This document shows, piece by piece, positions 4,106 through 40,360 of a DNA stretch of 40,360 bases. The notes under the pieces are model-generated. The model was not told where the DNA came from. It was given only the letters and a program-made list of their open reading frames with translations, and ran no database searches. The position numbers and the translations under genes are program-made. Positions within the stretch are counted from its first letter, which is position 1. The number at the start of each line of letters is the position of its first letter. This DNA comes from a virus (taxonomy: Duplodnaviria > Caudoviricetes), in the IMG/VR virus record IMGVR_UViG_3300032954_000041, positions 1 to 40,360 of that record. One strand, written 5' to 3'.

Positions 4106-5302
4106 CTAGAGATGCAGCAGGATGACGGCGATTTCCTCTTCCTCGCGTGCCATCGCCTCGCGCTTGCGATGCTCGTCCTCGGCCTTGCGCTTCCAGTCGT
4201 AGTAGGCGTTGATGAGCGACGTGTATGAGTGCTTGCGCGCCATCTCGAGATACTCGGAGATGGCGTGCTGGCTTTCGGCGGCCTGCCGGACGAGCGCGAC
4301 AGGGACGATATCAACCGGCTGCGCAAGGATCTTGGCCGCCTTGATGCGTTTGAGAGCTCTGGCCGCGTTCGGGCTCGAACTGTTCTTGGCCTCGATCGCC
4401 TTACGGGCGGCATCCGCGTCCGCCTTGTTCATGAACACGAGCAACCGGTCGCCGTCGCGCACGCCGTAGCGCTTGGTGTGGCGACCTGCTGCCGAGGCTG
4501 GCGTGAACGTCGAGCCAGCTTCGGCCTGCCCCGTCGTGCTGGACAGTCCAGCGCCGAACACCGAGCCCGCCGTCAGCGACTCAAGGTCTGCTGATCCCGT
4601 GGTGGCGGAGAGTCCCGCAGCCGCGACTGCGGCATCTGCCTCCGCGAGAGAGGTCGAAGCTGACAACCCGCTGGCTGCAATCGACGCCGCAAGCTGCGCA
4701 GGGCCGACCGTGACGCTGACTCCGGCGCCCGCGGCTCCAGAGATCTGCGCTTGCCCAAGTGTCTCGGATAGCCCGGACGCTCCGATACCTGCGGCAGCCT
4801 GCGATCCTGCAATCGTGCCGGAGAGCCCGCTGGCGCCAAGTGCCGCATCGGCTTCTGCTGTTGCCGTGGTCGCCGAGAGCCCGGCCGCAGTCGTCGCTCC
4901 GGCACTCGAGACGGTCAGCGATGCCGGCCCGATGGTGGACGAGAGGCCTAGCGATGCAATGCTGGCGTTCGCCTGCGCCGCGCCGACCGTGACCGTGAGG
5001 CCGGCGGCAGTCAACGCTGCAGAGGCCTGCCCTGCGCCTGTGGTTGACGAGAGCGCATCGGCCCCGACGCCGCCGGACATCCCGGCAGGTCCGACGGTGG
5101 CGGAAAGCCCTGCGACAGCGATGGACGCGCGCGCCTGCGCGACGCCGACGGTGCAGGAGATCCCGGCCCCTGCGATCGACGCCATTACGACCGCAGCGCC
5201 GATGGTGGCCGAGAGTCCTGCGGCAGTCTGCGTGGGCGGTCCGGTTGCGGACGGGTCCAGGTCCCGGTCGAACCATTTTTCGATGATGAAATCGCGCGAC
5301 AT
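4106..5302 (-). CDS. Ala/Gly/Ser-rich repeat protein (about 18-aa repeats) with a charged C-terminal domain; putative fibre shaft/anchor
   Basis: Repeats of the form A(A/S)GLS.T.G.A.A.A.I. C-term 'REEEEIAVILLHL'. Coupled to its neighbours. Confidence 0.65.
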   Translation of the reverse strand: MSRDFIIEKWFDRDLDPSATGPPTQTAAGLSATIGAAVVMASIAGAGISCTVGVAQARASIAVAGLSATVGPAGMSGGVGADALSSTTGAGQASAALTAAGLTVTVGAAQANASIASLGLSSTIGPASLTVSSAGATTAAGLSATTATAEADAALGASGLSGTIAGSQAAAGIGASGLSETLGQAQISGAAGAGVSVTVGPAQLAASIAASGLSASTSLAEADAAVAAAGLSATTGSADLESLTAGSVFGAGLSSTTGQAEAGSTFTPASAAGRHTKRYGVRDGDRLLVFMNKADADAARKAIEAKNSSSPNAARALKRIKAAKILAQPVDIVPVALVRQAAESQHAISEYLEMARKHSYTSLINAYYDWKRKAEDEHRKREAMAREEEEIAVILLHL

Positions 5303-5305
5303 GGT

Positions 5306-6589
5306 CTAGAACCACTCGCGGATGTCTAGGCCCCAATCACGACCGCCGTCATGCGGATAGCGAATGCGCGGGTCCTCGATAGTGTCGTAAGGGACGACGA
5401 TCATCGCCACGGGCAGCGTCGTCCGGCTGCCGTTAGAGTCCGTCAGTACGCACTGGTACTGTCGTCCAGATGCCGAAACAAGTTCCGGCGGAGTCGTGTA
5501 CGTCGCACTCGTCGCCCCGGTGCCGTCCGCGCAATTCGCGAAGCTGCCGGTGCGGTTGTCCTGCCACTGGTAGGTGAGCGATCCGGCGCTCGCCGTCGCG
5601 GTTACGCTGAAGGTGGCGAGCTGGCCTTCCATGATCCGCACGCCGAACGGGGCGACCGTGATGATCGGCTGCAGCGTGTAGGTAATGACGATGAGCCCGT
5701 CGCCACCGTGGCCGAACGTCGAGCTGCTCGAGTTGCAGCCGCCGCCGCCGCCGCCGTAGTTTCCGCCGCTCGGAGTGTTCGAGGCGTTGCTGCCCGCGCC
5801 CTGTCCGCCTCCGCCACCGCCAGCCCCGATGTTCTGCACCGACGACGACCCGTTGACGTAATCGGTCGTCCAGTCGTTTGTGCCTGGGCCGCCTACGCCA
5901 CCAGCACCTTGGCTGGCAGAGCCACCACCGCCACCGCCGCCGCCGGCCGTACCTGCAGTTCCGGCCCCGGATGGAGACGACCCGCCCGTGCCATGCCCGG
6001 AACCCGCGAAGTTGTCGCCGCCGTTACCGCCGGCTGCCGTCGCCGCGCCATCAGCGCCGGGCGTGCCACCGGTAGATGCGCCGCCACCGCCCCCCGATCC
6101 GCTCGATACCGAGCACTGGCCGCCGTGCGCGCCATCGCCATGGATACCGCCAGCACCGCCGCCACCACCGCCTCCCGAGGTGCTGGCAACTCCGCCCGCG
6201 CCGCCGTTATAGGCGACCGAGTTGAAGATGCAGCCCGAGACCGCACCGCCAGCCGCCCCTGTTCCGGGGCTGACAGACCCAGAACCGCCCTTGGCCCCGC
6301 AGATGCTGGAGGCGAACTGGACGTGGCCGATCCAGGTGTCGCCACCCGCTGCCGAACTGGTCGTAGCGCCCGCGCCTACGGTGTATGGCGTGCCGTTCGG
6401 TAGCTGGACGTTGACGGACTTGGCATAGGCCCCGCCACCGCCGGAGCCGCCTGATGTGCTGTTCTGGGGGTTGATCGAGGAGCCACCGCCACCGATGCAC
6501 TCGACGCTCGTGGCGACTCCGGGATAATCGGCAGGCCCGGAGAGCGTTCCCGACCCGGTCGTCGTGATGGCCCAGACTTTCGTCGTCAT
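5306..6589 (-). CDS. Glycine-rich (polyglycine) virion protein with a C-terminal Ig-like domain
   Basis: 'VECIGGGG...GGGGAYAK' and 'GGDGLIVITY' glycine-rich-domain caps. C-term 'ATFSVTA...LTYQWQ...GATSATYT...GRQYQCVLTDSNG' is an Ig fold signature. Confidence 0.75.
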   Translation of the reverse strand: MTTKVWAITTTGSGTLSGPADYPGVATSVECIGGGGSSINPQNSTSGGSGGGGAYAKSVNVQLPNGTPYTVGAGATTSSAAGGDTWIGHVQFASSICGAKGGSGSVSPGTGAAGGAVSGCIFNSVAYNGGAGGVASTSGGGGGGGAGGIHGDGAHGGQCSVSSGSGGGGGASTGGTPGADGAATAAGGNGGDNFAGSGHGTGGSSPSGAGTAGTAGGGGGGGGSASQGAGGVGGPGTNDWTTDYVNGSSSVQNIGAGGGGGGQGAGSNASNTPSGGNYGGGGGGCNSSSSTFGHGGDGLIVITYTLQPIITVAPFGVRIMEGQLATFSVTATASAGSLTYQWQDNRTGSFANCADGTGATSATYTTPPELVSASGRQYQCVLTDSNGSRTTLPVAMIVVPYDTIEDPRIRYPHDGGRDWGLDIREWF

Positions 6590-6592
6590 GGG

Positions 6593-7960
6593 CTAGAAGC
6601 TGATGATGACGGCGTAGCCTGAGCCTCCGGCCCCTCCTGCGCCGCCAAGCCCTGGGTTCATGCCGACGCCACCACCACCCCCGCCTCCACCGGCCTTGCC
6701 GCCATTGCCGCCCGCGGCTCCGTTGGTCGAGGCCGTGACCGTCGTCCCGCCGCCACCGCCTCCCCCACCGCCAACCGTAGAGTTGCCGTCGGCGCCGTTC
6801 GAGCCTGCCGTCGGGCTCGCCCCGTCCGTGCCCTTTCCGGCACCGGTGCCGGCCGTATAGACGCCAGACAGGCCGCCAGCGGCACCGCCGACGATGGCCG
6901 GGGTCGCATTGTGATGCCCACCAGTTCCACCGCCGCCGCCTGCGAAGATCGACCCGCCACCGACAGAGCTGGTCGGTGTTGAGGTTGAGCCACCTCCGCC
7001 TGCGCCGCCAAACTCGGCATTGTGCGTCGTGACGACGGTGACCGTGCCATCCGAGCCGGTGCCGCCCCAGACGCCCGTGACGCCCTTTGCGCCCGAAGGG
7101 CCTGGCAATCCGCCTTGGCCGACCGAGGCGCTGCCAGACGTGCCGGCGCTGCCCGTTCCGCCGCCGCCACCACCGCCGGACGCGGCCGCAGAGATCGCGC
7201 CACCCGCGCCACCACCACCACCGTAGGCGATCGTGTAGGTGCCGAAAGAGGTATTGCCACCGATGCCGCCAGCGCCGCCGGCAGCGCCCGCCGCGCCAGG
7301 ACTGCCGGCCGTACCCGCCGTGCCGACCGTCACGGATACCGTAGCGGTCACATCGGCGGCGAGCAGGATCTCCCGGACGTACGCCCCACCACCACCGCCA
7401 GCGCCGCCCTTGGCAACTACCGCAGTCGCGAGCGAGGCTCCAGCGCCGCCACCGCCCCCCGCGCCCCACAGCTTCACGAGCACGCACTTCGGCGTGAACG
7501 ACGTGGGCTTGGTCCAAGTCCCGTTGCTCGCGAACGTCTGCACGTCCACCGGGCCGACGAAGTTGCTGAGCTTCGGGATGCCGCCGGAGGTGAACGCGGT
7601 CCAGTCCCCGCCCTCGTCCATGATGACCGACTCGGACGGCAACAGGGTTCCAGACCACAGGATCGAGGTGTTGGTGCTATCAACGACTTGTACCGTGATG
7701 ACGTTCGTCACGCTCGCCGAGGCGTTGTAGAGCGTCAGGTGCTTGACGTTGTAGACCTTGCCGCTCGCGATACCGGTCGCGTCCACGACCGTCGTGGTCG
7801 CAGCCGTCGTGATCGAGGTGAGCGCCTGGAAGTCAGGCAATGGCTGGACCACCGGAGGGGTCGAGGCGTCGGCATACATCACGTCGACGTCCGGCCGGAT
7901 GTCGCCGGCTGAGCCGGTGATAACCTGCAGCTTGTCGGTATTGCCGCGTAGGATCAGCAC
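6593..7960 (-). CDS. Glycine-rich virion/fibre protein
   Basis: 'VDVQTFASNGTWTKP...VLVKLWGAGGGG...GGSGYAVIISF' glycine-rich-domain architecture after an N-terminal beta domain. GTG start 3 nt after the upstream stop. Confidence 0.75.
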   Translation of the reverse strand: MLILRGNTDKLQVITGSAGDIRPDVDVMYADASTPPVVQPLPDFQALTSITTAATTTVVDATGIASGKVYNVKHLTLYNASASVTNVITVQVVDSTNTSILWSGTLLPSESVIMDEGGDWTAFTSGGIPKLSNFVGPVDVQTFASNGTWTKPTSFTPKCVLVKLWGAGGGGGAGASLATAVVAKGGAGGGGGAYVREILLAADVTATVSVTVGTAGTAGSPGAAGAAGGAGGIGGNTSFGTYTIAYGGGGGAGGAISAAASGGGGGGGTGSAGTSGSASVGQGGLPGPSGAKGVTGVWGGTGSDGTVTVVTTHNAEFGGAGGGGSTSTPTSSVGGGSIFAGGGGGTGGHHNATPAIVGGAAGGLSGVYTAGTGAGKGTDGASPTAGSNGADGNSTVGGGGGGGGGTTVTASTNGAAGGNGGKAGGGGGGGGVGMNPGLGGAGGAGGSGYAVIISF

Positions 7961-7963
7961 GGA

Positions 7964-8686
7964 TCAGGCCTTCTGGATAGCGATCGCGCCGATGGCAAAG
8001 GTCGGGGCTACACCGCTGGAGACGACGAGCGGACCCGCCTTGTAGATGAAACCGGAGCCGGTGCTCGACGTGTTTACCGGGTTGCCGTTCGCGGTCGTGG
8101 TCGAGAGCGTCAACGTCTGGCCACCCGGCGCCGTACCGACGTAGTAGATCGTGCCTTCCGTAAGCCCGGTCGGTAGCCCTTCCTGCCCCGGAGCCTGGCA
8201 GACCATCACGCGATCGTTGACGACCGGCGTATACCCGTAGCACGTCAGGATGCCGGGCGATGCGCTCGTGCAGGTGAACGGGACATCAGGACCCGCCGAC
8301 GGGCCGAGCGGACCGAAGGCCAGCAGTGTGCCCGCGCCTGACAACGACAGCCCGATGCCCCAGTGCGTCAGCGTGTCGCCAGTGACGCCGCAACTCGGGA
8401 AGTTAATGGCCGCGGCATTGGCAACGCTCGAGAACGTCGTGCCTGAACCGGTCGTCACCGTCCAGCCACCCGTGGTACGCGCAACCGCCTGCCGCGCGTA
8501 GTTCGTGTACGCCGTCTCGTTGGTGGTCTGCGAGCCGGTAGGCCCCGGCGTGCCGTTGTGCAGGCTGACGTACAGGTTCGTCGCGGGGGAGCCGGCGTTC
8601 TGGGCCACCGTGCTCCATGTTCCGGTGAACACCGCGCAGAAAAGCGCGTTGAACTCGGCAGCCGAACCGGCGTAGGTGAGGATCAT
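7964..8686 (-). CDS. Phage fibre/minor structural protein
   Basis: 'LYVSLH..TPG..G.Q..NE..YTNYARQAV', 'NAAAINFP', 'THWGIG' match a common phage fibre family. An extra 'LPTGLTEGTIYYV' domain is inserted. AAGGA RBS. Confidence 0.7.
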   Translation of the reverse strand: MILTYAGSAAEFNALFCAVFTGTWSTVAQNAGSPATNLYVSLHNGTPGPTGSQTTNETAYTNYARQAVARTTGGWTVTTGSGTTFSSVANAAAINFPSCGVTGDTLTHWGIGLSLSGAGTLLAFGPLGPSAGPDVPFTCTSASPGILTCYGYTPVVNDRVMVCQAPGQEGLPTGLTEGTIYYVGTAPGGQTLTLSTTTANGNPVNTSSTGSGFIYKAGPLVVSSGVAPTFAIGAIAIQKA

Positions 8687-8701: not shown

Positions 8702-10288
8702 TCAATTCTCGTATGCGCCGATGCTCGGGGGCACCGGACGCGGTTTGCTGTCCAGATCAGTCGGCACGGCCTGGTGCAGCCCCACAGCCCCGGCGCCGAT
8801 CGCGGGGCTGCCGGCTTGCAGGTGGTAGTCGGTCGTGGAGGCGAACTTCGGGTCTCCATAGACGCCTGTGGCATCCCCTGAGTACTTCGCTTTCTGTTTC
8901 CCGGAAGAGTCAAAGTAGAGATTGTTCGCGAACGCGACCGCGCTGATCGTGCCGCCGTTGTAGACCCAGCCCGACTTTGGGTTCGCCAGGATGTTGTTCT
9001 TGATCTCGACGTACCCGCTCGCGATGCTGGAGCCGTCCGAGTTGCCGTACGGATACGCGCAGCCGACGATCGTGTTGTGCACGAAGCTGACCGCGGGCGT
9101 CCCCATCAGGTTGTTGGTGCGCAGCGCATAGCTCGACATGTTCACGACGACATTGTCCCATGCCGCGCAGCTCTGCGAGGCATCGGCGAAGTTGATGCCG
9201 TACTTAGCGGCCGTGTCGAGGTAGTTGTGGTGCACCGTCATGCCGGTAAAGGGCGTGGCGGGACCTGAGCCGTTGTAGCACTGGTAGGCCGAGCCGCCCT
9301 TCATGTTGACGATCCAGTTCCACGCCGCCTCGCAGTTGGTCGCGGTGTGGTTGGACGAGTCGAAGTAGATCCCGTGGGTTTCCTGAGCCGTTCCGGTGAT
9401 GTCGTGGATGTAGTTGCCGTAGACCTTGATGCCGGTCCCGTTGCCGGCGATCCCGCCTGACTCCGCCGAGTTCGTCGCGAGCCACGGCCCCAGTTCGCAG
9501 TTGACGACGCGCCAATAGTTCGAGTCCGACTGGAAGTCCACCGGCCCGTCGGTTGCCGTGGGGTCGCCCGAGATGTGCAGGTTCGAGATCGCGACGTAGG
9601 GGCAGACGTGGTCATTGCTGCCGTGAATGCCGCCCTTCGATCCCGCGGGCGCCGCGAGCTGCACGGTCTCGCCCGGATAGGACGTGATCGTGAAATAGCC
9701 ATTGCCCGCGACACCATTCGGGGCCGTGCCGCCGAACGTGTAGAACTGCACCAGCCGGCTGTTGAGGCCGAGAGTGCTGTACGTGCCCGCGCGGCACACG
9801 ACGTACGTGCCCGGCACTTTCCCTTTGAGCGCACCGCCGCCGGTCGAGGTCTGGATGTGCTGGTATGGCCTGCCGATCGTGCCGTCGTTCGAGTCGTTGC
9901 CGTTCACCGGGTCGACGAAGTAGATCGGCCCCGGCTGTGCTGTGAACGTGATACCCGAGTCAACGCCGCCCACCGCGATCGTTCCCGTGGGCACCGGACC
10001 CACCTGCACCACGAGCTGCTGCAGCGGCGGGTTGAACTTGGGAGCAACGATCGCCGGACCAAGCGAGCGATAGTTCGCGACCGGCACGCCACCGATCGTT
10101 ACCTGCTCGACCAAGTTGATGCCAAAGATACTGAGATAGCAGCCGAGCCCGTTCTCGCCGCCCGTAGTCGGGCCGGCGATGATGTCGGTGTAGAACACCT
10201 GCGGCGAGCCGCTCGCGGCCAGCACCACGAGCGTCAGGGCCGCAGACGCGGCCTTGCCAGACGCGTCGGTGACGCCGACCGAGAACAC
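8702..10288 (-). CDS. Right-handed beta-helix (pectin-lyase-like) protein with an IPT/TIG-like domain; putative receptor-binding protein or depolymerase
   Basis: 'YLSIFGINL..VTIGG', 'IYFVDPVNGNDSNDGT..PYQHIQ', beta-helix coils, C-term 'DYHLQAGSPAIGAG...DLD..PRP..PSIGAYE'. I place the start at GTG 10288, not 10372. Confidence 0.75.
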   Translation of the reverse strand: MFSVGVTDASGKAASAALTLVVLAASGSPQVFYTDIIAGPTTGGENGLGCYLSIFGINLVEQVTIGGVPVANYRSLGPAIVAPKFNPPLQQLVVQVGPVPTGTIAVGGVDSGITFTAQPGPIYFVDPVNGNDSNDGTIGRPYQHIQTSTGGGALKGKVPGTYVVCRAGTYSTLGLNSRLVQFYTFGGTAPNGVAGNGYFTITSYPGETVQLAAPAGSKGGIHGSNDHVCPYVAISNLHISGDPTATDGPVDFQSDSNYWRVVNCELGPWLATNSAESGGIAGNGTGIKVYGNYIHDITGTAQETHGIYFDSSNHTATNCEAAWNWIVNMKGGSAYQCYNGSGPATPFTGMTVHHNYLDTAAKYGINFADASQSCAAWDNVVVNMSSYALRTNNLMGTPAVSFVHNTIVGCAYPYGNSDGSSIASGYVEIKNNILANPKSGWVYNGGTISAVAFANNLYFDSSGKQKAKYSGDATGVYGDPKFASTTDYHLQAGSPAIGAGAVGLHQAVPTDLDSKPRPVPPSIGAYEN

Positions 10289-10289
10289 G

Positions 10290-10553
10290 CTAGGTCGGGG
10301 TGCCGCTGATGAGGCCGCTGGCCGAAAGACTGAGGCCAGCCGGGAGCGAACCCGATGCCAAAGACCAGGCATAAGGGGGCGTGCCTCCGGTTGCGGTAAG
10401 CGTGAACGAGTACGGGACCCCGACCTGAGCTGCCGGCAGCGTCGCCGGCGAGGTGATCGCGAGCGGCGCGGGATTGACCGTCAGCGTAACGACCTGCGTC
10501 GATGTCGCGCCCGTCGCGTCGGTGACCTGTACATCCCATGAAAGCGTGGTCAT
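10290..10553 (-). CDS. 87-aa putative Ig (He_PIG-like) domain protein, circularly permuted
   Basis: 'LPAAQVGVPYSFTLTATGGTPPYAWSLASGSLPAGLSLSASGLISGTPT' is a He_PIG-type signature. Strong GAGGAG RBS. Confidence 0.8.
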   Translation of the reverse strand: MTTLSWDVQVTDATGATSTQVVTLTVNPAPLAITSPATLPAAQVGVPYSFTLTATGGTPPYAWSLASGSLPAGLSLSASGLISGTPT

Positions 10554-10570
10554 TTAGTGCTCCTCGTGAA

Positions 10571-13024
10571 CTACTGAATAGTGATCGTGCGGCCATCCGA
10601 AAGTGTTGCGGTTCGCGGCCGGCTCATGTGCTGGGTGAGCGCCTCGAGGACGCTCGCGAGGCGATCATTGTTATCGGGCGGCTTCTCGCCGCCGCCCTCA
10701 ATGCCTTGGTCTGCCTCGTTGACGTCCTTGGCCATCGCTTGCCCGGCGTCTGCGCTGGGGTCGCCTTTCAACTGCGAAGCGAGGATCGACGAGAACGCCT
10801 TGACCAGGGTCTGCACCATGTCGGAGTGCGTCGCATCGAGTTGCACCTCGCGGTCCTTGTGTCCCTGCACAGCCTCGTGGTTCAGCTGCGTCATCGCCTT
10901 CAAACGCTCTTCCGCAGCCTGGTCCTTCGCCTGGTTCAGCTGACCCAGCAGCTCAAGGATCTTGCGCTGGTCCTCAGATGCCTGTTTAGACTGTTCCATG
11001 CCGGCGCGGATCTGCGCGGCCTGCACCTGCGGCGCCTGTGGCTGGTGCGCAGCCTGCGCCTGCATCTGCTTCATGTGCTGCGCAAACTCCTGTCCGTTCG
11101 GGTCCATCGCGAACTGCTCGGGATTCGAGAACCCGAGCGCCTCGACGCCGACCTTGAACGTGTTGAACGCCTGCTTGGGGCCGACCATGCCCATCTGCGC
11201 GAGCGGGGCCTGCATCTGGCTCAGCACGATGACGTTCGAGCGCAGTTCCTCGCGATTGCCGGAACCAAGACCGACGTTCGGCGAGACCTTCGTGCGGCGG
11301 CGCCATGAGGTCGGATCGATCTGCACCCACTTGCCGCTGATCTCAAGCTCCAGCGGCTTGTCCTGGTTGCGGATGAGCTCAGAGTGGATCTTGCGGAAGA
11401 TGTCCTTGACGCCTTCCGCAAGAAGCCTCGCGACAAGCTCTATCTTGAGCGTCGCCGCGCTCATCGCAGCCATCTGGCCGCCCTTCGTCATGTTCTGCAG
11501 GTCGTCCGGGTCGAGTCCGGTCGTATGCTCACCGACCCCGGTGCGCGCCGTGCGCAACTCGTCGATGTAGCCGAGTACCGGGAGCACCTGCTCGACGATG
11601 TTCGACGGTGATTGGATCGGAGCCATCCAGGTGGACGGCGGCCCACTGCCGCGGACGACGCCGCCTGGGCGCGAGGTCAGCAGGTCGTCCATGTTGACGT
11701 TGCGCCAGTCCACGGCAATGCGCTGGTTGTTGGCGATGGTCAGGTTGTCGAGGCTCTCCCGGAACAGCGTCGTCTTGATGATCTGCAGGTCCATGATCTC
11801 GTCGTACAGACTGATGCCGGTATGACGGTGCGGCATCCGCTTCGGCGTGCACGACGCGAACGGCGTCTCCTCGATGACCTCGTTCTCGCCGATCTTGTCG
11901 CCGCCCACGACGATCCTGCGCAGTTCCGCGACGCCATCCCCGTCGTAATCGACGCGCATGATGACCTTGCGCAGCTCGATCTCCTGCATCGCGAAGTCCG
12001 AGGGGTTCTCGATCGAGAGCTGATCGACCACCTGGTTGCGGGCGAGCGCGTCGATCTCGAGCCAGTTGGGGCGCCCGGAAGCGAGCGAGTTCACCCAGTC
12101 GCGCTCGTACCCATCGGTGATGAGGTCGGAACGCGCGACGTTCGTGATGTGCATCGCGAACGAGACGTCTTCCATGTTGTTGCGCGCCCGCGCCGAGATC
12201 CGCATCTCCTCCGGCGGCAGGCAGGCAACGCACACGCGCTTCTGTTTCGCCTTGCGCCGGATGCGGATGTCGAACGCCGGCGTCTGCACGACGAGATGCT
12301 GCGCGACCTGCGCGGCTTGCGGATTCTGCGGCTGGCCCGCGATCGCCATCGGCAGCTGTGGGATCGGCACCATCACGTCGCGCAGGTACTCACGCTGGCC
12401 GATGACCTCGATCTCCTCGTCCGCGGCATCGTTCAGGATTTCCGCGACCTCGATCTCGGTGAGGCCGGTATAGCTCTCCTCGGATACCTTGGTCTCTTCC
12501 TTCGTGTAGACCTCGACGTACCCGTTGCGCATCAAGAGCGCATCCTTGAAGAAGTCGTGCAGCACCATCACGCCGTCGTTCTGCTGCATGAAGACGTGAT
12601 TGACCGCCATCGTCTCGAGTTCGGCCTGTTTCTCGTCGAGTTCGTTCTCCGGGTCGAAGCGACAGACCGTCTTGGCGCCGACGAACATCCGCATCAGCTG
12701 CGGCATGATCCATTCGATCGTGTCGCGCAGTTCCGGCAGCACGATCTGGCTGCGGTTCTCGATCTCGTTGCCGAGCGGACGCGCGAAGTAGGCATTGATC
12801 GCGTTGTAGCGGTCGATCTCGAGCGTCGTCATCGCCTGGTTGGACGGGAAGATCGTCGTCGAGATCGTCGCGCCGGCCGCGATCTGCGAACCCAGCGAGG
12901 CGCGCTCATAGGAGGCGATGAGCGCGAGAAGCTCGCCCTCGCTCATGCGCTTCTTGGGCTGGGAGCGCGCGGTATCCGAGTCGATCGCGCGCTCGCCGTC
13001 TACCTGTTTCGTTTCGTCAGCCAC
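10571..13024 (-). CDS. Portal protein (P22-like) with a long C-terminal extension
   Basis: 'GNEIENRSQIV', 'IEWIMPQLMRMF', 'FFKDALLMRNGYV', 'PMPHR'-like 'KRMPHRHTG', 'DDLLTSRPGGVVR', 'VGLGSG'. Lies downstream of terL. Confidence 0.9.
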   Translation of the reverse strand: MADETKQVDGERAIDSDTARSQPKKRMSEGELLALIASYERASLGSQIAAGATISTTIFPSNQAMTTLEIDRYNAINAYFARPLGNEIENRSQIVLPELRDTIEWIMPQLMRMFVGAKTVCRFDPENELDEKQAELETMAVNHVFMQQNDGVMVLHDFFKDALLMRNGYVEVYTKEETKVSEESYTGLTEIEVAEILNDAADEEIEVIGQREYLRDVMVPIPQLPMAIAGQPQNPQAAQVAQHLVVQTPAFDIRIRRKAKQKRVCVACLPPEEMRISARARNNMEDVSFAMHITNVARSDLITDGYERDWVNSLASGRPNWLEIDALARNQVVDQLSIENPSDFAMQEIELRKVIMRVDYDGDGVAELRRIVVGGDKIGENEVIEETPFASCTPKRMPHRHTGISLYDEIMDLQIIKTTLFRESLDNLTIANNQRIAVDWRNVNMDDLLTSRPGGVVRGSGPPSTWMAPIQSPSNIVEQVLPVLGYIDELRTARTGVGEHTTGLDPDDLQNMTKGGQMAAMSAATLKIELVARLLAEGVKDIFRKIHSELIRNQDKPLELEISGKWVQIDPTSWRRRTKVSPNVGLGSGNREELRSNVIVLSQMQAPLAQMGMVGPKQAFNTFKVGVEALGFSNPEQFAMDPNGQEFAQHMKQMQAQAAHQPQAPQVQAAQIRAGMEQSKQASEDQRKILELLGQLNQAKDQAAEERLKAMTQLNHEAVQGHKDREVQLDATHSDMVQTLVKAFSSILASQLKGDPSADAGQAMAKDVNEADQGIEGGGEKPPDNNDRLASVLEALTQHMSRPRTATLSDGRTITIQ

Positions 13025-21431: not shown

Positions 21432-21719
21432 ATGGCAAAGACGACGAAAGAGCGCGCAGTCATGGTCACGACCGTACATCGCGGCGTGTTCTTCGGCTAC
21501 GCCAAGGACACCGACGGCGACACGATCAAGCTGCGCCGCGCGCGCTGCTGCATCTACTGGACCGCAGAGAACAAGGGCTTTCTCGGCCTTGCCTCGCATG
21601 GCCCCACGAAGGGCGCGCGCGTGGGGCCTGCCGTTGATCTCGAACTGCGCGACATCACGAGCGTATCCGAATGCACGCCGGATGCGATCAGGGCCTGGGA
21701 GGCATCGCCGTGGGGCTGA
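21432..21719 (+). CDS. Conserved phage protein (DUF6948-like from memory)
   Basis: 'VMVTTVHRGVFFG...IKLRRAR...YW....LGLASHG'. AAGGAGG RBS. This type usually precedes a G-Y/G-D repeat protein. Confidence 0.75.
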   Translation: MAKTTKERAVMVTTVHRGVFFGYAKDTDGDTIKLRRARCCIYWTAENKGFLGLASHGPTKGARVGPAVDLELRDITSVSECTPDAIRAWEASPWG

Positions 21720-22264
21720 AGCGGCTGACTGAAGCGGAGCTTGTGAAAACGTTCGGCTCCGGCTCCGGCTCCGGCTCCGGCTACGGCTACGGCTACGGCG
21801 ACGGCTACGGCTACGGCGACGGCAACGGCTACGGCTACGGCTACGGCAACGGCGACGGCTACGGCTACGGCTACGGCTACGGCTACGGCAACGGCGACGG
21901 CTACGGCTACGGCTACGGCAACGGCGACGGCTACGGCTACGGCAACGGCTATTGGAAAACCATTCTTGATTCTTTCAAGAAGAAGTTGTCAGCCGTCACG
22001 GCACCCATCGCCTTCTGGTGGTCCGACGACAAAGGACTGCCATGCAACGGTGGCAAGAAGATCATGCCCGCAGCCGTAGGTATCGTGCACAAGGTCCACG
22101 GCCCGTTGTCGCTCTGCAATGCCGGCACGCTGCATGCCACGCGCGATCCTGGAAAGTGGAAAGGCGAGCGGCTGTGGATCGTCGCGCTGCACGGCGAGGT
22201 GATCGGCAATGACGAGAAACTCGGCTGCCTCAAGCGGGAGATCCTCGCGGAGGTCACGTCATGA
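21710..22264 (+). CDS. Gly-Tyr/Gly-Asp/Gly-Asn dipeptide repeat protein with a globular C-terminal domain
   Basis: GTG start with a GGGAGG RBS. (GX)n tract followed by 'LCNAGTLHA...KLGCLKREILAEV'. Confidence 0.75.
   Translation: MGLKRLTEAELVKTFGSGSGSGSGYGYGYGDGYGYGDGNGYGYGYGNGDGYGYGYGYGYGNGDGYGYGYGNGDGYGYGNGYWKTILDSFKKKLSAVTAPIAFWWSDDKGLPCNGGKKIMPAAVGIVHKVHGPLSLCNAGTLHATRDPGKWKGERLWIVALHGEVIGNDEKLGCLKREILAEVTS
21755..21952 (+). repeat. Coding hexanucleotide tandem repeat (GGCTAC/GGCTCC/GGCGAC/GGCAAC)
   Basis: Directly visible array of about 33 units. Confidence 0.95.
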
Positions 22265-25796: not shown

Positions 25797-26429
25797 GTGA
25801 AATTTGAGATCAAGTCGCGATTCTCGGGCGCTGTGCTGTTCTCGCTTGAGACGGATAGCCTGAAACTCTGTGTCGAGGCAGCGGTAAAGTCCGGCGCGAA
25901 CCTGTCCGGCGCGGACCTGCGCGGCGCGCACCTGTACGGCGCGGACCTGCGCGGCGCGCACCTGTACGGCGCGGACCTGCGCGGCGCGCACCTGTACGGC
26001 GCGGACCTGCGCGGCGCGGACCTGTCCGGCGCGGACCTGTTCGGCGCGGACCTGTCCGGCGCGGACCTGTCCGGCGCGGACCTGTTCGGCGCGGACCTGT
26101 TCGGCGCGAACCTGTTCGGCGCGAACCTGTCCGGCGCGTGCCTGCACGGCGCGTACCGAAAGACAAAGATTACGCTTGTCGGTGATCGTCCGTTCTTCAC
26201 GACCGGCCCAATAGGCTCTCGCAACGCGATGCTGCAAGCGTTTCTGACGGACGCGGGCGTCTACGTGCGCGCCGGGTGCTTCTGGGACACGCTGGACGAG
26301 TTCAGGAAGGCTGTAGCCAATACTCATCCAAGCGGGGTACACGCTGAGGAATACAAGGCAGCGATTGCCGCGATTGCGTGGCACGCGCACCTTTGGATGC
26401 CGAAGGCGGATGCGGTCAAGGTTGCATAG
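25797..26429 (+). CDS. Pentapeptide repeat protein
   Basis: Tandem A(D/N/H)LxG repeats encoded by a 15-nt array at about 25893-26153. C-term '[12 protein letters not shown]...THP'. GAGGAG RBS. Confidence 0.92.
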
Positions 26430-36559: not shown

Positions 36560-36892
36560 CTACCCCATCAGGCCAGCGCGCTGCGCAAGCAACTGGCTCA
36601 GCATCGCAGGCGTCAACTGCTGGCCGCCCGGCATCTGCCCCGGCACGACCGGACCCGGCATCTGCGGCGTCTGCACCTGCCCCTGCGGGGCCATGCGCCG
36701 CTGCATCTGCTGGATGTTCGCGCGCTGCTGCATCAGCGGGTCCTGCGCAGAGCCGATGCCGCCGAGCATCGCGCGACCTGCGAGCAATGCAGGGTTCATC
36801 GGCTGCTGCTGTTGCTGCTGGCCCTGTCCCTGCTGGAACACGGACTGCGCCGCTGCTGCCGTCGGGTTCTGTGGTGCTCCGCCGCCGCTCAT
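36560..36892 (-). CDS. Gln/Pro/Met-rich low-complexity protein
   Basis: GGAGG RBS. Packed in the ejection module. Confidence 0.6.
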   Translation of the reverse strand: MSGGGAPQNPTAAAAQSVFQQGQGQQQQQQPMNPALLAGRAMLGGIGSAQDPLMQQRANIQQMQRRMAPQGQVQTPQMPGPVVPGQMPGGQQLTPAMLSQLLAQRAGLMG

Positions 36893-38635: not shown

Positions 38636-40359
38636 ACCGGGCCGCCCGGCTGCACCATGAGTGTCGCGCCGTGCATCGCACTGGCATTCGTGGACGTCAC
38701 CCGTGCGCGCGTATACAAGCCTTGCCCTATCACTGGCGCAAAACCGCCGCCAAAAGCGTCAGGCGCTACCGCTGAAGAGTACGAGACCGACGCCGTCAGA
38801 GTGTTGCGGTTCCCGAGGGTGACGGTCGGAGACGTCAAGCTCCCGTTCGGACGCGCGGAGATGGTTGTGCGCGTATTGCCATCAGAGAACATGATGTCAC
38901 AGGACTCGAGATAGCCCGACGACGGCGACCCCGTCAGGAGGCTGTAATTGTGGGACTGGTCGAAAACGCCGAGCCGCTGCCTGGAACCGTCGTTGTCGCT
39001 CCATACGAGCTCCGTACTGGCCGCGGCACGGGTCCATCGGCCCGACAGCATGTTGTAGATCAGCAGCGTGTCTGGGAGCGTATTACCGCCCGTGGGGATG
39101 GCCCAGAAGACGCAGCGCTTCTGCGCGTCATAGCCGGAGCGGATGGCGGACAACGCCGATGTGTTGACGTTTGACCAAAACCAGTTGTCGATGCCGGCTG
39201 AATTGTCACTCGCTGTACCGATTGGAATGACGTTGGCACCGTCAGTCACGAAGAAGCCGGCGTCCGACAAGAAATACACCTGCGATTCGACCTGGACGGC
39301 ACCGCCGCGGGTCAGCAGCCCGCGCTTGCGCTCATAGGTGCCCCAACTGAACACGACGTTGCCGCCCTGGTACGTCGCCCGAGTAATGGCTTCGCGCTGG
39401 AAGATCAGTGCGTAGAGCGGATAGCCTGCGATGAACATGATCGGGCCGAATTCGTACTCAAGGTCGTTCTGCCCGCTCTGCGCAGCGATTGCCGCCTGCG
39501 TGAGCGGCGTCGGCCAGCTCGTGGCATCTCCGATCGCAGACCAACGCAGGCGTGACCTGAACCCTTGCGCGCTCAGGCAACTGACCTGATGACCGTTGGC
39601 CGGGGGCGACGAGAACGTGACCGAGACGATGCCCGAGGCATAGCCGACCGTACCGCTGGCGATCCCGGTGCCGGAAATGACACCCGCCCCGTTGTCTACG
39701 CCAACCGCCGAGCCGCCCTGATCGGCTACCTGGATGGACGTCGGCATCAGCGGCGTGTTCGTCAATGTGCCGCTAAAGGTCACGGTCACGCCGTCGCCGG
39801 TACCGAGCACGACGGGAGTCATGTTCTGGATGTAGACGTCACCGACCATCACGAACTGCCCGACGACGCCGAGGGCTGTCCCCCAGGGTGCCGCCGTGAT
39901 CGGGGTCTGCGGGGCAATAGCTCCGGGTACCAGCGCATAGAGGTTCGCGAGTACACCGTTGAAGTTCACAATCTGCTGCGGGACGTACTGCGAATAGAGA
40001 TTCGCCCCGAACTGGCAGAAGTTGATATTCGTCGAGTTGCCGCCAGCGACGACGAACAACGTGGCCCACGCCGAGTTCATCCAGGCATAGAGACCAGTGC
40101 CGATAGACCCAGCAATGGGAATCGGCGTACCGCTCGAGTCGAGGAACGTGAAGGCTCCGACGCACTGCCCGGCAAGCGCCGGCGACCCGGATACGGCTAC
40201 CTGCGTCGGCAGGCTCTTGTAGACGCCGTTGTTGTGGTAGACATTGAGACAGTCCGCGCACGGCACCGGGATGGGTCCCGGCATCTGCGGCACCTGCACC
40301 GGGACGTTCGCGAGGTCAGGCGTCCACGGACCGAATTGGATGGTGAACGGCTGCGCCAC
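38632..40359 (-). CDS. Tail nozzle/DNA stabilisation protein (tubular protein B or P22 gp10-like)
   Basis: 'IQFGPWTPD', 'RLRWSAIGDATSWP', 'LIFQREAITR', 'VYFLSDAGFFVTDG', 'LLIYN...RWT'. Follows the adaptor across the circular junction. Confidence 0.8.
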   Translation of the reverse strand: MAQPFTIQFGPWTPDLANVPVQVPQMPGPIPVPCADCLNVYHNNGVYKSLPTQVAVSGSPALAGQCVGAFTFLDSSGTPIPIAGSIGTGLYAWMNSAWATLFVVAGGNSTNINFCQFGANLYSQYVPQQIVNFNGVLANLYALVPGAIAPQTPITAAPWGTALGVVGQFVMVGDVYIQNMTPVVLGTGDGVTVTFSGTLTNTPLMPTSIQVADQGGSAVGVDNGAGVISGTGIASGTVGYASGIVSVTFSSPPANGHQVSCLSAQGFRSRLRWSAIGDATSWPTPLTQAAIAAQSGQNDLEYEFGPIMFIAGYPLYALIFQREAITRATYQGGNVVFSWGTYERKRGLLTRGGAVQVESQVYFLSDAGFFVTDGANVIPIGTASDNSAGIDNWFWSNVNTSALSAIRSGYDAQKRCVFWAIPTGGNTLPDTLLIYNMLSGRWTRAAASTELVWSDNDGSRQRLGVFDQSHNYSLLTGSPSSGYLESCDIMFSDGNTRTTISARPNGSLTSPTVTLGNRNTLTASVSYSSAVAPDAFGGGFAPVIGQGLYTRARVTSTNASAMHGATLMVQPGGPV

Positions 40360-40360
40360 G
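40261..40360. repeat. Terminal direct repeat, right copy
   Basis: Matches 1-100 at 99 of 100 positions. Confidence 0.95.

Follow-up and report, generated by a model that had tools for sequence, protein, structure and literature searches.

We describe a two-gene phage cassette in which an immunoglobulin-like (Ig) domain is divided between proteins. An 87-aa subunit, here called the extender, begins with the strands that should close its own domain and stops where those strands are due, and the 528-aa protein encoded next, here called the tip, begins with the same strands. Sequence comparisons support a real split, conserved with the same boundaries in unrelated loci, and complementation in trans between extender and tip appears highly probable. 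Together with structure models, they suggest that this is a real, conserved, and recurring cassette, a phage variant of donor-strand complementation that is predicted to polymerize.

The window, that is, the whole stretch of DNA analyzed, comprises an entire virus record of 40,360 bp with a podophage-like genome (Table 1). It has a direct terminal repeat of ~99 bp (1-100 and 40262-40360), and the genome was assembled as a circle and opened at the start of a 575-aa tail gene. Parts of it are present as contigs in four wetland metagenome runs, and a Burkholderiales bin carries a near-identical piece of 6.3 kb (L095), a weak hint about the host. The extender and tip genes head a block of accessory structural genes that lies between the portal and scaffold genes and includes gp80-like and Gly-rich, fiber-like genes. 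The 23 flanking or late proteins scanned were phage structural proteins or had no assigned role, and none matched a chaperone or an usher. The segment at 4106-8686 (minus strand) encodes the gp80-like protein and a 398-aa Ala/Gly protein with repeats of ~16 residues, with Gly-rich proteins of 455 and 427 aa between them; the gp80-like and 398-aa proteins may form a rope-and-dimer fiber of the GP4/A1002 type. Two other repeat proteins were observed on the plus strand, a 197-aa ORF containing an extended tract of Gly-Tyr/Gly-Asp/Asn repeats (21671-22264) and a pentapeptide-repeat-like protein (25797-26429).

TABLE 1 Coordinates of the cassette, neighboring genes, and related loci
Feature	Position	Strand	Basis or remark
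Extender, 87-aa circularly permuted single He_PIG Ig subunit	10290..10553	-	ORF, Pfam, models
Extender donor beta-hairpin, residues 2-26 (strands E2-11 and E17-26)	10476..10550	-	Profile, models; residues 2-29 insert in neighbor (model)
Extender open Ig body, residues 30-87, without F-G strands (acceptor)	10293..10466	-	Pfam, profiles, models
GAGGAG ribosome-binding site of extender	10560..10565	-	6 nt before ATG
TAG-C-GTG stop-start junction	10286..10292	-	GTG at 10288
Tip/cap, 528 aa: donor hairpin, TIG-like domain, right-handed beta-helix; putative glycan binding/degrading	8702..10288	-	Pfam, relatives, model
Tip donor hairpin, residues 1-22	10223..10288	-	Profile rank; pLDDT <50 in own chain
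GP4 fiber-I gp80-like gene	7964-8686	-	Directly after tip gene; same placement in L063
SU10-type portal	10571-13024	-	Directly upstream of extender gene
Terminase	13312-14607		Gene
SU10-type capsid	1691-2656		Gene; scaffold gene also present
Class B cassettes	L119:4992-6515; L121:4944-6472; L144:2220-4022; L136:5007-5664; L177		
Open-ended family of ~280-300 aa	L022/L028, L033, L042, L043, L044, L050, L060, L070, L073		

The extender ORF begins with MTTLSWDVQVTD and ends in GLISGTPT followed by TAG. Residues 32 to 87 match the Pfam family He_PIG (PF05345) with 45.4 bits against a gathering cut-off of 24. Since this match covers profile positions 3 to 66 of 96, and nothing after residue 87 corresponds to positions 67 to 96, the end of the protein lacks the C-terminal strands. 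The chain does not hold a complete domain in canonical order, its F-G strands preceding the body. Both halves of this permutation, the opening hairpin and the halt at GTPT, had been proposed in a first-pass annotation of the sequence, and the Pfam boundary bears out the second. For the first, we used a profile built from 148 F-G hairpins of continuous domains, by which the N-termini of extender and tip are the best two of 53,941 six-frame genome positions (31.7 and 30.4 bits; the next scores 17.7). Both N-termini also fall within the top 0.06% of 24,595 ORF starts. Scored as donors, the two hairpins are practically equal (27.0 bits for the extender versus 27.5 for the tip), and all six proteins of class A (defined below) have the full complementing pattern.

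The junction itself and the second donor found with the profile confirm that a GTG one base after the TAG opens the 528-aa gene with the same hairpin; gene callers settled on this GTG as well in near-identical records (P0039, 528 aa). The contrast already drawn between a strong ribosome-binding site in the small gene and only stop-start coupling in the large gene was reproduced as anti-Shine-Dalgarno (SD) duplex energies of -8.1 and -1.7 kcal/mol, respectively, and the predicted SD of the extender is among the strongest of 20 late genes in the window. Stop-start coupling with gaps of 0 to 4 nt is common in the extender/tip operon. GTG starts a few bases after a stop were found again at 975, 7960, and 40359 (the last by way of the terminal repeat) which, together with a TGA-C-ATG junction at 36892, indicates that such coupling is the normal style of this phage.

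Contigs (not reads) from two of the four runs span the junction without gaps, namely record 6 of run X1 (10163-10580) and record 21 of X3, and the junction is identical in a locus with 98.7% identity (L003) and in L095, which may share one habitat. One joint in an X1 contig (10206-10547), with 34 letters on its short side and 85% likeness, was assigned to another organism. Codon changes in the tip amounted to 9 synonymous versus 2 nonsynonymous over 155 codons, and the extender had none over 88. These observations speak against an assembly or sequencing error and against a degenerating piece of a multi-Ig gene captured from bacteria, which we regard as the most improbable of all the explanations weighed. 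Error-like stops do occur in scans of this kind (L032 and L054), and the close relatives of the tip are bacterial secreted proteins, several of them with N-terminal He_PIG repeats, as a captured gene would have it. However, the same boundaries recur in homologues with 57 to 67% identity to the 87-mer, which refutes the error reading; the indel that had been left as an alternative is disfavored.

Hardly more credible is a programmed +1 frameshift, or a readthrough, producing one continuous Ig-TIG-beta-helix protein. Bacterial relatives of the tip are indeed continuous proteins of this type, with their Ig-repeat stalks in cis, and the second frame has no interruption at the stop (556-aa ORF). 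Ig domains appended by frameshifting are also known in phages, where they are said to have been described by Fraser in 2006. Nevertheless, fusion would leave only 10 to 11 residues between GTP and VTD, fewer than in any of the 1,266 natural repeats measured in 150 long proteins, where the distance is 14 in 1,106 cases and 12 at minimum; the earlier estimate had been a linker ~3 aa too short. Stop-start offsets vary among homologues (+1, +1, +5, and -4 in class A; 0, -1, 0, +1, and +1 in class B) and, like the short linker, do not fit the conserved shift into an intact domain of frameshift-appended phage Ig domains. In-frame readthrough of the TAG gives no Ig sequence, and a fused protein would leave the spare N-terminal hairpin of the extender unaccounted for. 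Even taken jointly, frameshift and error retain a very small probability.

Searching for homologues with the same start and stop, as the first-pass annotation had suggested, revealed the same two-gene cassette at three more loci (L058, L063, and L074), which, like the window, belong to class A. Their extenders have 86 to 88 aa and the same ends, and the next gene starts with the hairpin (offsets of +1, +5, and -4). L063 and L074 have a different tip of ~410 aa without Pfam matches. In L063 the same gp80-like and Gly-rich genes then follow as in the window, while in L074 the cassette lies after lysis genes and not head genes. Two additional proteins, P0004 and P0210, show class A ends in records without gene context. 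A second, one-strand-permuted type (class B) was found in five viral loci. Here the extender is a single domain of 88 to 95 aa with the G strand in first place and the F-G turn at its end, and the next gene always opens with the missing G strand (within the top 0.07 to 1.4% of the 24,595 starts in the four scored). The tips of L119, L121, and L144 combine FN3-like and ice-binding-like (PF11999) domains, and these cassettes are near capsid, portal, or terminase genes. Class B ends were also present in five database proteins (P0017, P0018, P0033, P0036, and P0038). Both classes match a single Atlas cluster with 80 members of 85 aa; few of these have a record, and 53% of those few are viral. There was no tblastn match among INPHARED phages, and a PDB sequence search retrieved weak I-set tail proteins only.

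Split Ig domains also occur as direct joints with no extender. In a low-GC viral contig (L030:1-3539, minus strand), a 789-aa protein has an open He_PIG body at its end (GTPE), and the next gene, overlapping at TAATG, opens with the hairpin and continues with a He_PIG-like domain and TIG repeats. L062 has a direct joint with the same hairpin cut as class A. In L026 (4228-6671, minus strand), a P22 gp10-like tail protein likewise has an open body at its end (GTPT), which is probably completed by a hairpin-like insert, spotted by eye only, inside the overlapping LamG-like gene. A further family consists of Cys-rich proteins of ~280 to 300 aa with one full He_PIG domain and one open one at the end (Table 1; eight in the metagenome scan). 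The genes next to them gave poor scores with the hairpin profile in the seven tested, suggesting that open bodies can be completed in ways that this profile misses. In L111 (~5200-6000) and L123 (4611-5936), open He_PIG proteins and their neighbors have signal-peptide-like N-termini, after which come a G-strand-like segment and an FN3-like domain; they are possibly secreted versions of the cassette. L018/L029, on an 84-kb viral contig, has an in-frame TAG inside a He_PIG domain with an Ig-like continuation, which may represent recoding; it was left out of the cassettes.

The pattern scan of metagenomes gave 46 loci, among which there were 27 with TGG, 4 chance frames, 2 probable errors (the error-like stops above) and the window itself (L048), all three left out, 3 full cassettes, 1 direct joint, and the 8 open-ended proteins. 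With a single fixed-gap pattern, GTDB yielded 21 loci (16 with TGG and no stop, 4 chance frames, and the same phage in the Burkholderiales bin). In the viral profile scan, 66 of 77 loci had He_PIG cores, 122 altogether. Of these, 108 continue, 6 run off, and 1 belongs to the same phage, whereas 7 of the 122 stop 13 to 20 residues after GTP, four of which are cassettes (L119, L121, L136, and L144).

The AF2 model of the tip (pTM 0.92) is confident except for residues 1 to 22, which are unfolded (pLDDT <50). Its main body is a right-handed parallel beta-helix by both AF2 and Foldseek, matching GH136 (E 4.9e-10) and Pel9A (E 4.7e-7) and resembling GH136, PL9, and tailspike beta-helices at 12 to 15% identity. 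H305, Y308, and K362, among other residues, are conserved in the tip alignment. A glycan-binding or glycan-degrading function, as an adhesin or an enzyme, is putative. Of the two domains announced in the first-pass annotation, the beta-helix held up, while the TIG was not detected by Pfam and is better called TIG-like, from the strand pattern of the AF2 model and one relative named IPT/TIG.

For the extender, AF2 produced a monomer with a pLDDT of 93 and a pTM of 0.63 (three of five models above 88), with the hairpin at residues 2 to 26 and the body at 28 to 87. This monomer aligns across two successive SraP domains (92 columns, E 0.08). An Atlas model aligns over residues 1 to 87 onto tandem-repeat proteins (TM up to 0.83). 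This full-length alignment onto tandem-domain proteins indicates that the hairpin is directed away from the body, in keeping with the short NPAP linker between them, so that the monomer is predicted to be open. The self-closed permuted monomer, another alternative raised earlier, was thus seen in neither of two independent models. Foldseek gave no match of the 87-mer in the PDB at an E value of ≤0.001, and SraP, cadherin, and He_PIG-type domains are among its listed structural matches (best Z, 5.7).

Modeled with ESMFold2 as four copies of the extender only, the complex scored 0.62 versus 0.00 for the best of three controls, with at least 97% contact agreement between runs and a partner pLDDT of at least 89. 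The scored copy contacts one neighbor only, residues 2 to 29 inserting into 31 to 86, and the predicted assembly is an open head-to-tail chain, not a ring or a reciprocal dimer. In calibration, 20 of 30 solved pairs came up to the mark, as did 1 of 23 single chains; these figures are from two-copy jobs and apply here roughly. The result may reflect likeness to tandem He_PIG repeats, as all of the 150 top profile matches of the extender are long repeat proteins; none of these 150 ends at its cut point. The four-copy model supports the earlier proposal that 87-mers chain by donating their hairpin; a polymer in vivo and its attachment to the particle are inferred.

Searched in all six frames with a body HMM and the hairpin profile, the genome contains two donors and one acceptor, and hence the only homologous acceptor for the extender hairpin is another extender. 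This, the equal hairpin scores, and the stronger predicted SD of the extender in all eight cassettes favor a tip-capped polymer of the extender, carried as a fiber on the virion, as the best reading, to which we give somewhat better than even chances. What the sequence contributes to it is the permuted strand order, the hairpin shared with the next gene, the repeated occurrence in unrelated phages that carry exchanged tips, and the SD difference. The extender would be an Ig domain with its last two strands shifted to the N-terminus, whose hairpin plugs into the open body of the next copy to make a thin head-to-tail chain of many copies. The 528-aa tip would cap this chain through the identical hairpin and display the putative glycan-binding beta-helix, and the extender-to-cap ratio would set the chain length. 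The free basal hairpin would bind a nonhomologous partner and so attach the fiber to the particle, probably to the head. The neighboring genes suggest head decoration more than a tail fiber, as the cassette lies among portal, capsid, gp80-like, or decoration genes at L063, L121, L144, and in the window. Counting against the capped polymer, polymerization in the cytoplasm would be controlled by neither a chaperone nor a signal peptide, and the direct joints of L026, L030, and L062 use the same split one to one.

Those joints also speak for an adaptor, in which one 87-mer binds one tip and docks its own hairpin on a nonhomologous virion protein, or forms a short oligomer, the cassette being a plug for swappable tips rather than a fiber. 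A base anchor is needed in any case. None had been identified in the first-pass annotation, and our six-frame searches with the body HMM and the hairpin profile likewise found no homologous one in the window, nor was one found in two near-complete class B genomes (G001 and G002), with one He_PIG match each. A hairpin-like C-terminal end of the portal was outside the top matches of the hairpin profile. We nonetheless consider the adaptor unlikely, since the extender hairpin is fully complementing in all class A proteins and nothing evident stops self-association, the predicted expression of the extender exceeds that of the tip in every cassette, and the four-copy model forms a chain.

No homologous acceptor was found in the window to explain attachment to the virion, and an extender polymer might instead exist off the particle, as free fibers, as closed rings or swapped dimers released at lysis, or as an assembly sink. 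The location of the L074 cassette counts against a virion fiber, and the signal-peptide-like N-termini of the class B relatives L111 and L123 would suit a free one. Head or decoration neighbors at four loci and an open chain in the model, neither ring nor reciprocal dimer, make this possibility quite improbable. Returning to the capped polymer, its boldest form would be that environmental phages bear true pili on their particles, made by a mobile two-gene cassette of a self-polymerizing permuted Ig subunit and an interchangeable strand-donating cap. The cassette would have arisen at least twice, with different cut points, and would work without chaperone, usher, or tape measure, its length set by the translation ratio and its base anchored to the head by an unrecognized acceptor. 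We place this just short of an even chance. The caps seen across cassettes are a beta-helix, a ~410-aa domain without family, and an ice-binding protein.

To our knowledge, phage fibers are trimeric, consist of single multidomain chains, or are made of rope-threaded dimers. If true, a homopolymer joined by strand complementation and closed by a plug-in cap would be another way for phages to build reach; exchanging receptor-binding or enzymatic tips would need only an N-terminal tag of ~20 residues, and small stand-alone He_PIG genes of phages, such as those in the Atlas cluster, would be explained. The cassette may also serve as a chaperone-free, cappable protein nanofiber and is a candidate source of unassigned thin fibrils in environmental cryo-EM. 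No strand-complemented Ig fiber on a phage was found in the literature searched, with most subscription journals outside its reach; in the accessible part of one source, "strand exchange" in a phage context refers to capsid arms (PMC7385642).

Among phage structures, the closest comparison is with the fibers of the podophages GP4, VP1, and A1002, a type built of gp80-like dimers threaded on a rope protein whose tape-like rope fixes the copy number, according to the accessible text of PMC13730344. Both would be noncovalent chains of small beta subunits joined by beta-sheet augmentation (predicted for the extender), and a gp80-like gene follows the tip gene in the window and in L063. Unlike those fibers, the extender is predicted to form chains by itself, without a rope, and the 87-mer matches He_PIG, the Gp80 match being the separate gene in Table 1. 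Chaperone-free donor-strand polymers are also formed by the archaeal cannulae/TasA superfamily (10.1101/2024.12.30.630787), and the TLP-1a/b pond fibrils have a signal peptide, an n+4 donor, and an 8-nm tube (PMC11494351), as far as the available portions of these sources go. They share with the predicted extender chain self-polymerizing Ig-like or beta-sandwich subunits, an N-terminal donor strand, and the lack of an usher, and differ from it, in the same portions, in being secreted cellular proteins with other folds. Neither group was among the matches listed for the 87-mer by Foldseek or VIA. Tandem He_PIG (PF05345) adhesins and the cadherin-like repeats of SraP (4m00/4m03) belong to the same domain family and have the same predicted interdomain geometry, but here, in place of their stalk in cis, there is a gene of a single repeat with the cut lying within the domain.

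Chaperone-usher pili (Fim, Pap, Caf1, and CupE) polymerize by donor-strand complementation. This mechanism is summarized in the accessible part of PMC11494351. The analogy with them, made in the first-pass annotation, stands in part. As in these pili, an incomplete Ig fold is predicted, from sequence and model, to be completed by the N-terminal extension of the next subunit, head to tail and with a specialized end protein. Unlike in them, class A donates two strands as a hairpin, the extender, judged by its listed structural matches, probably has a He_PIG/cadherin-like fold rather than a pilin fold and is phage encoded, and the cassette has no signal peptide, chaperone, or usher, the extender starting directly with a strand. 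The polarity is also reversed, as the functional domain (adhesin or enzyme) sits on the donor, terminator-like end and not on an acceptor adhesin. Thus, the cassette is not a member of the chaperone-usher family, although it is predicted to work like donor-strand pili.
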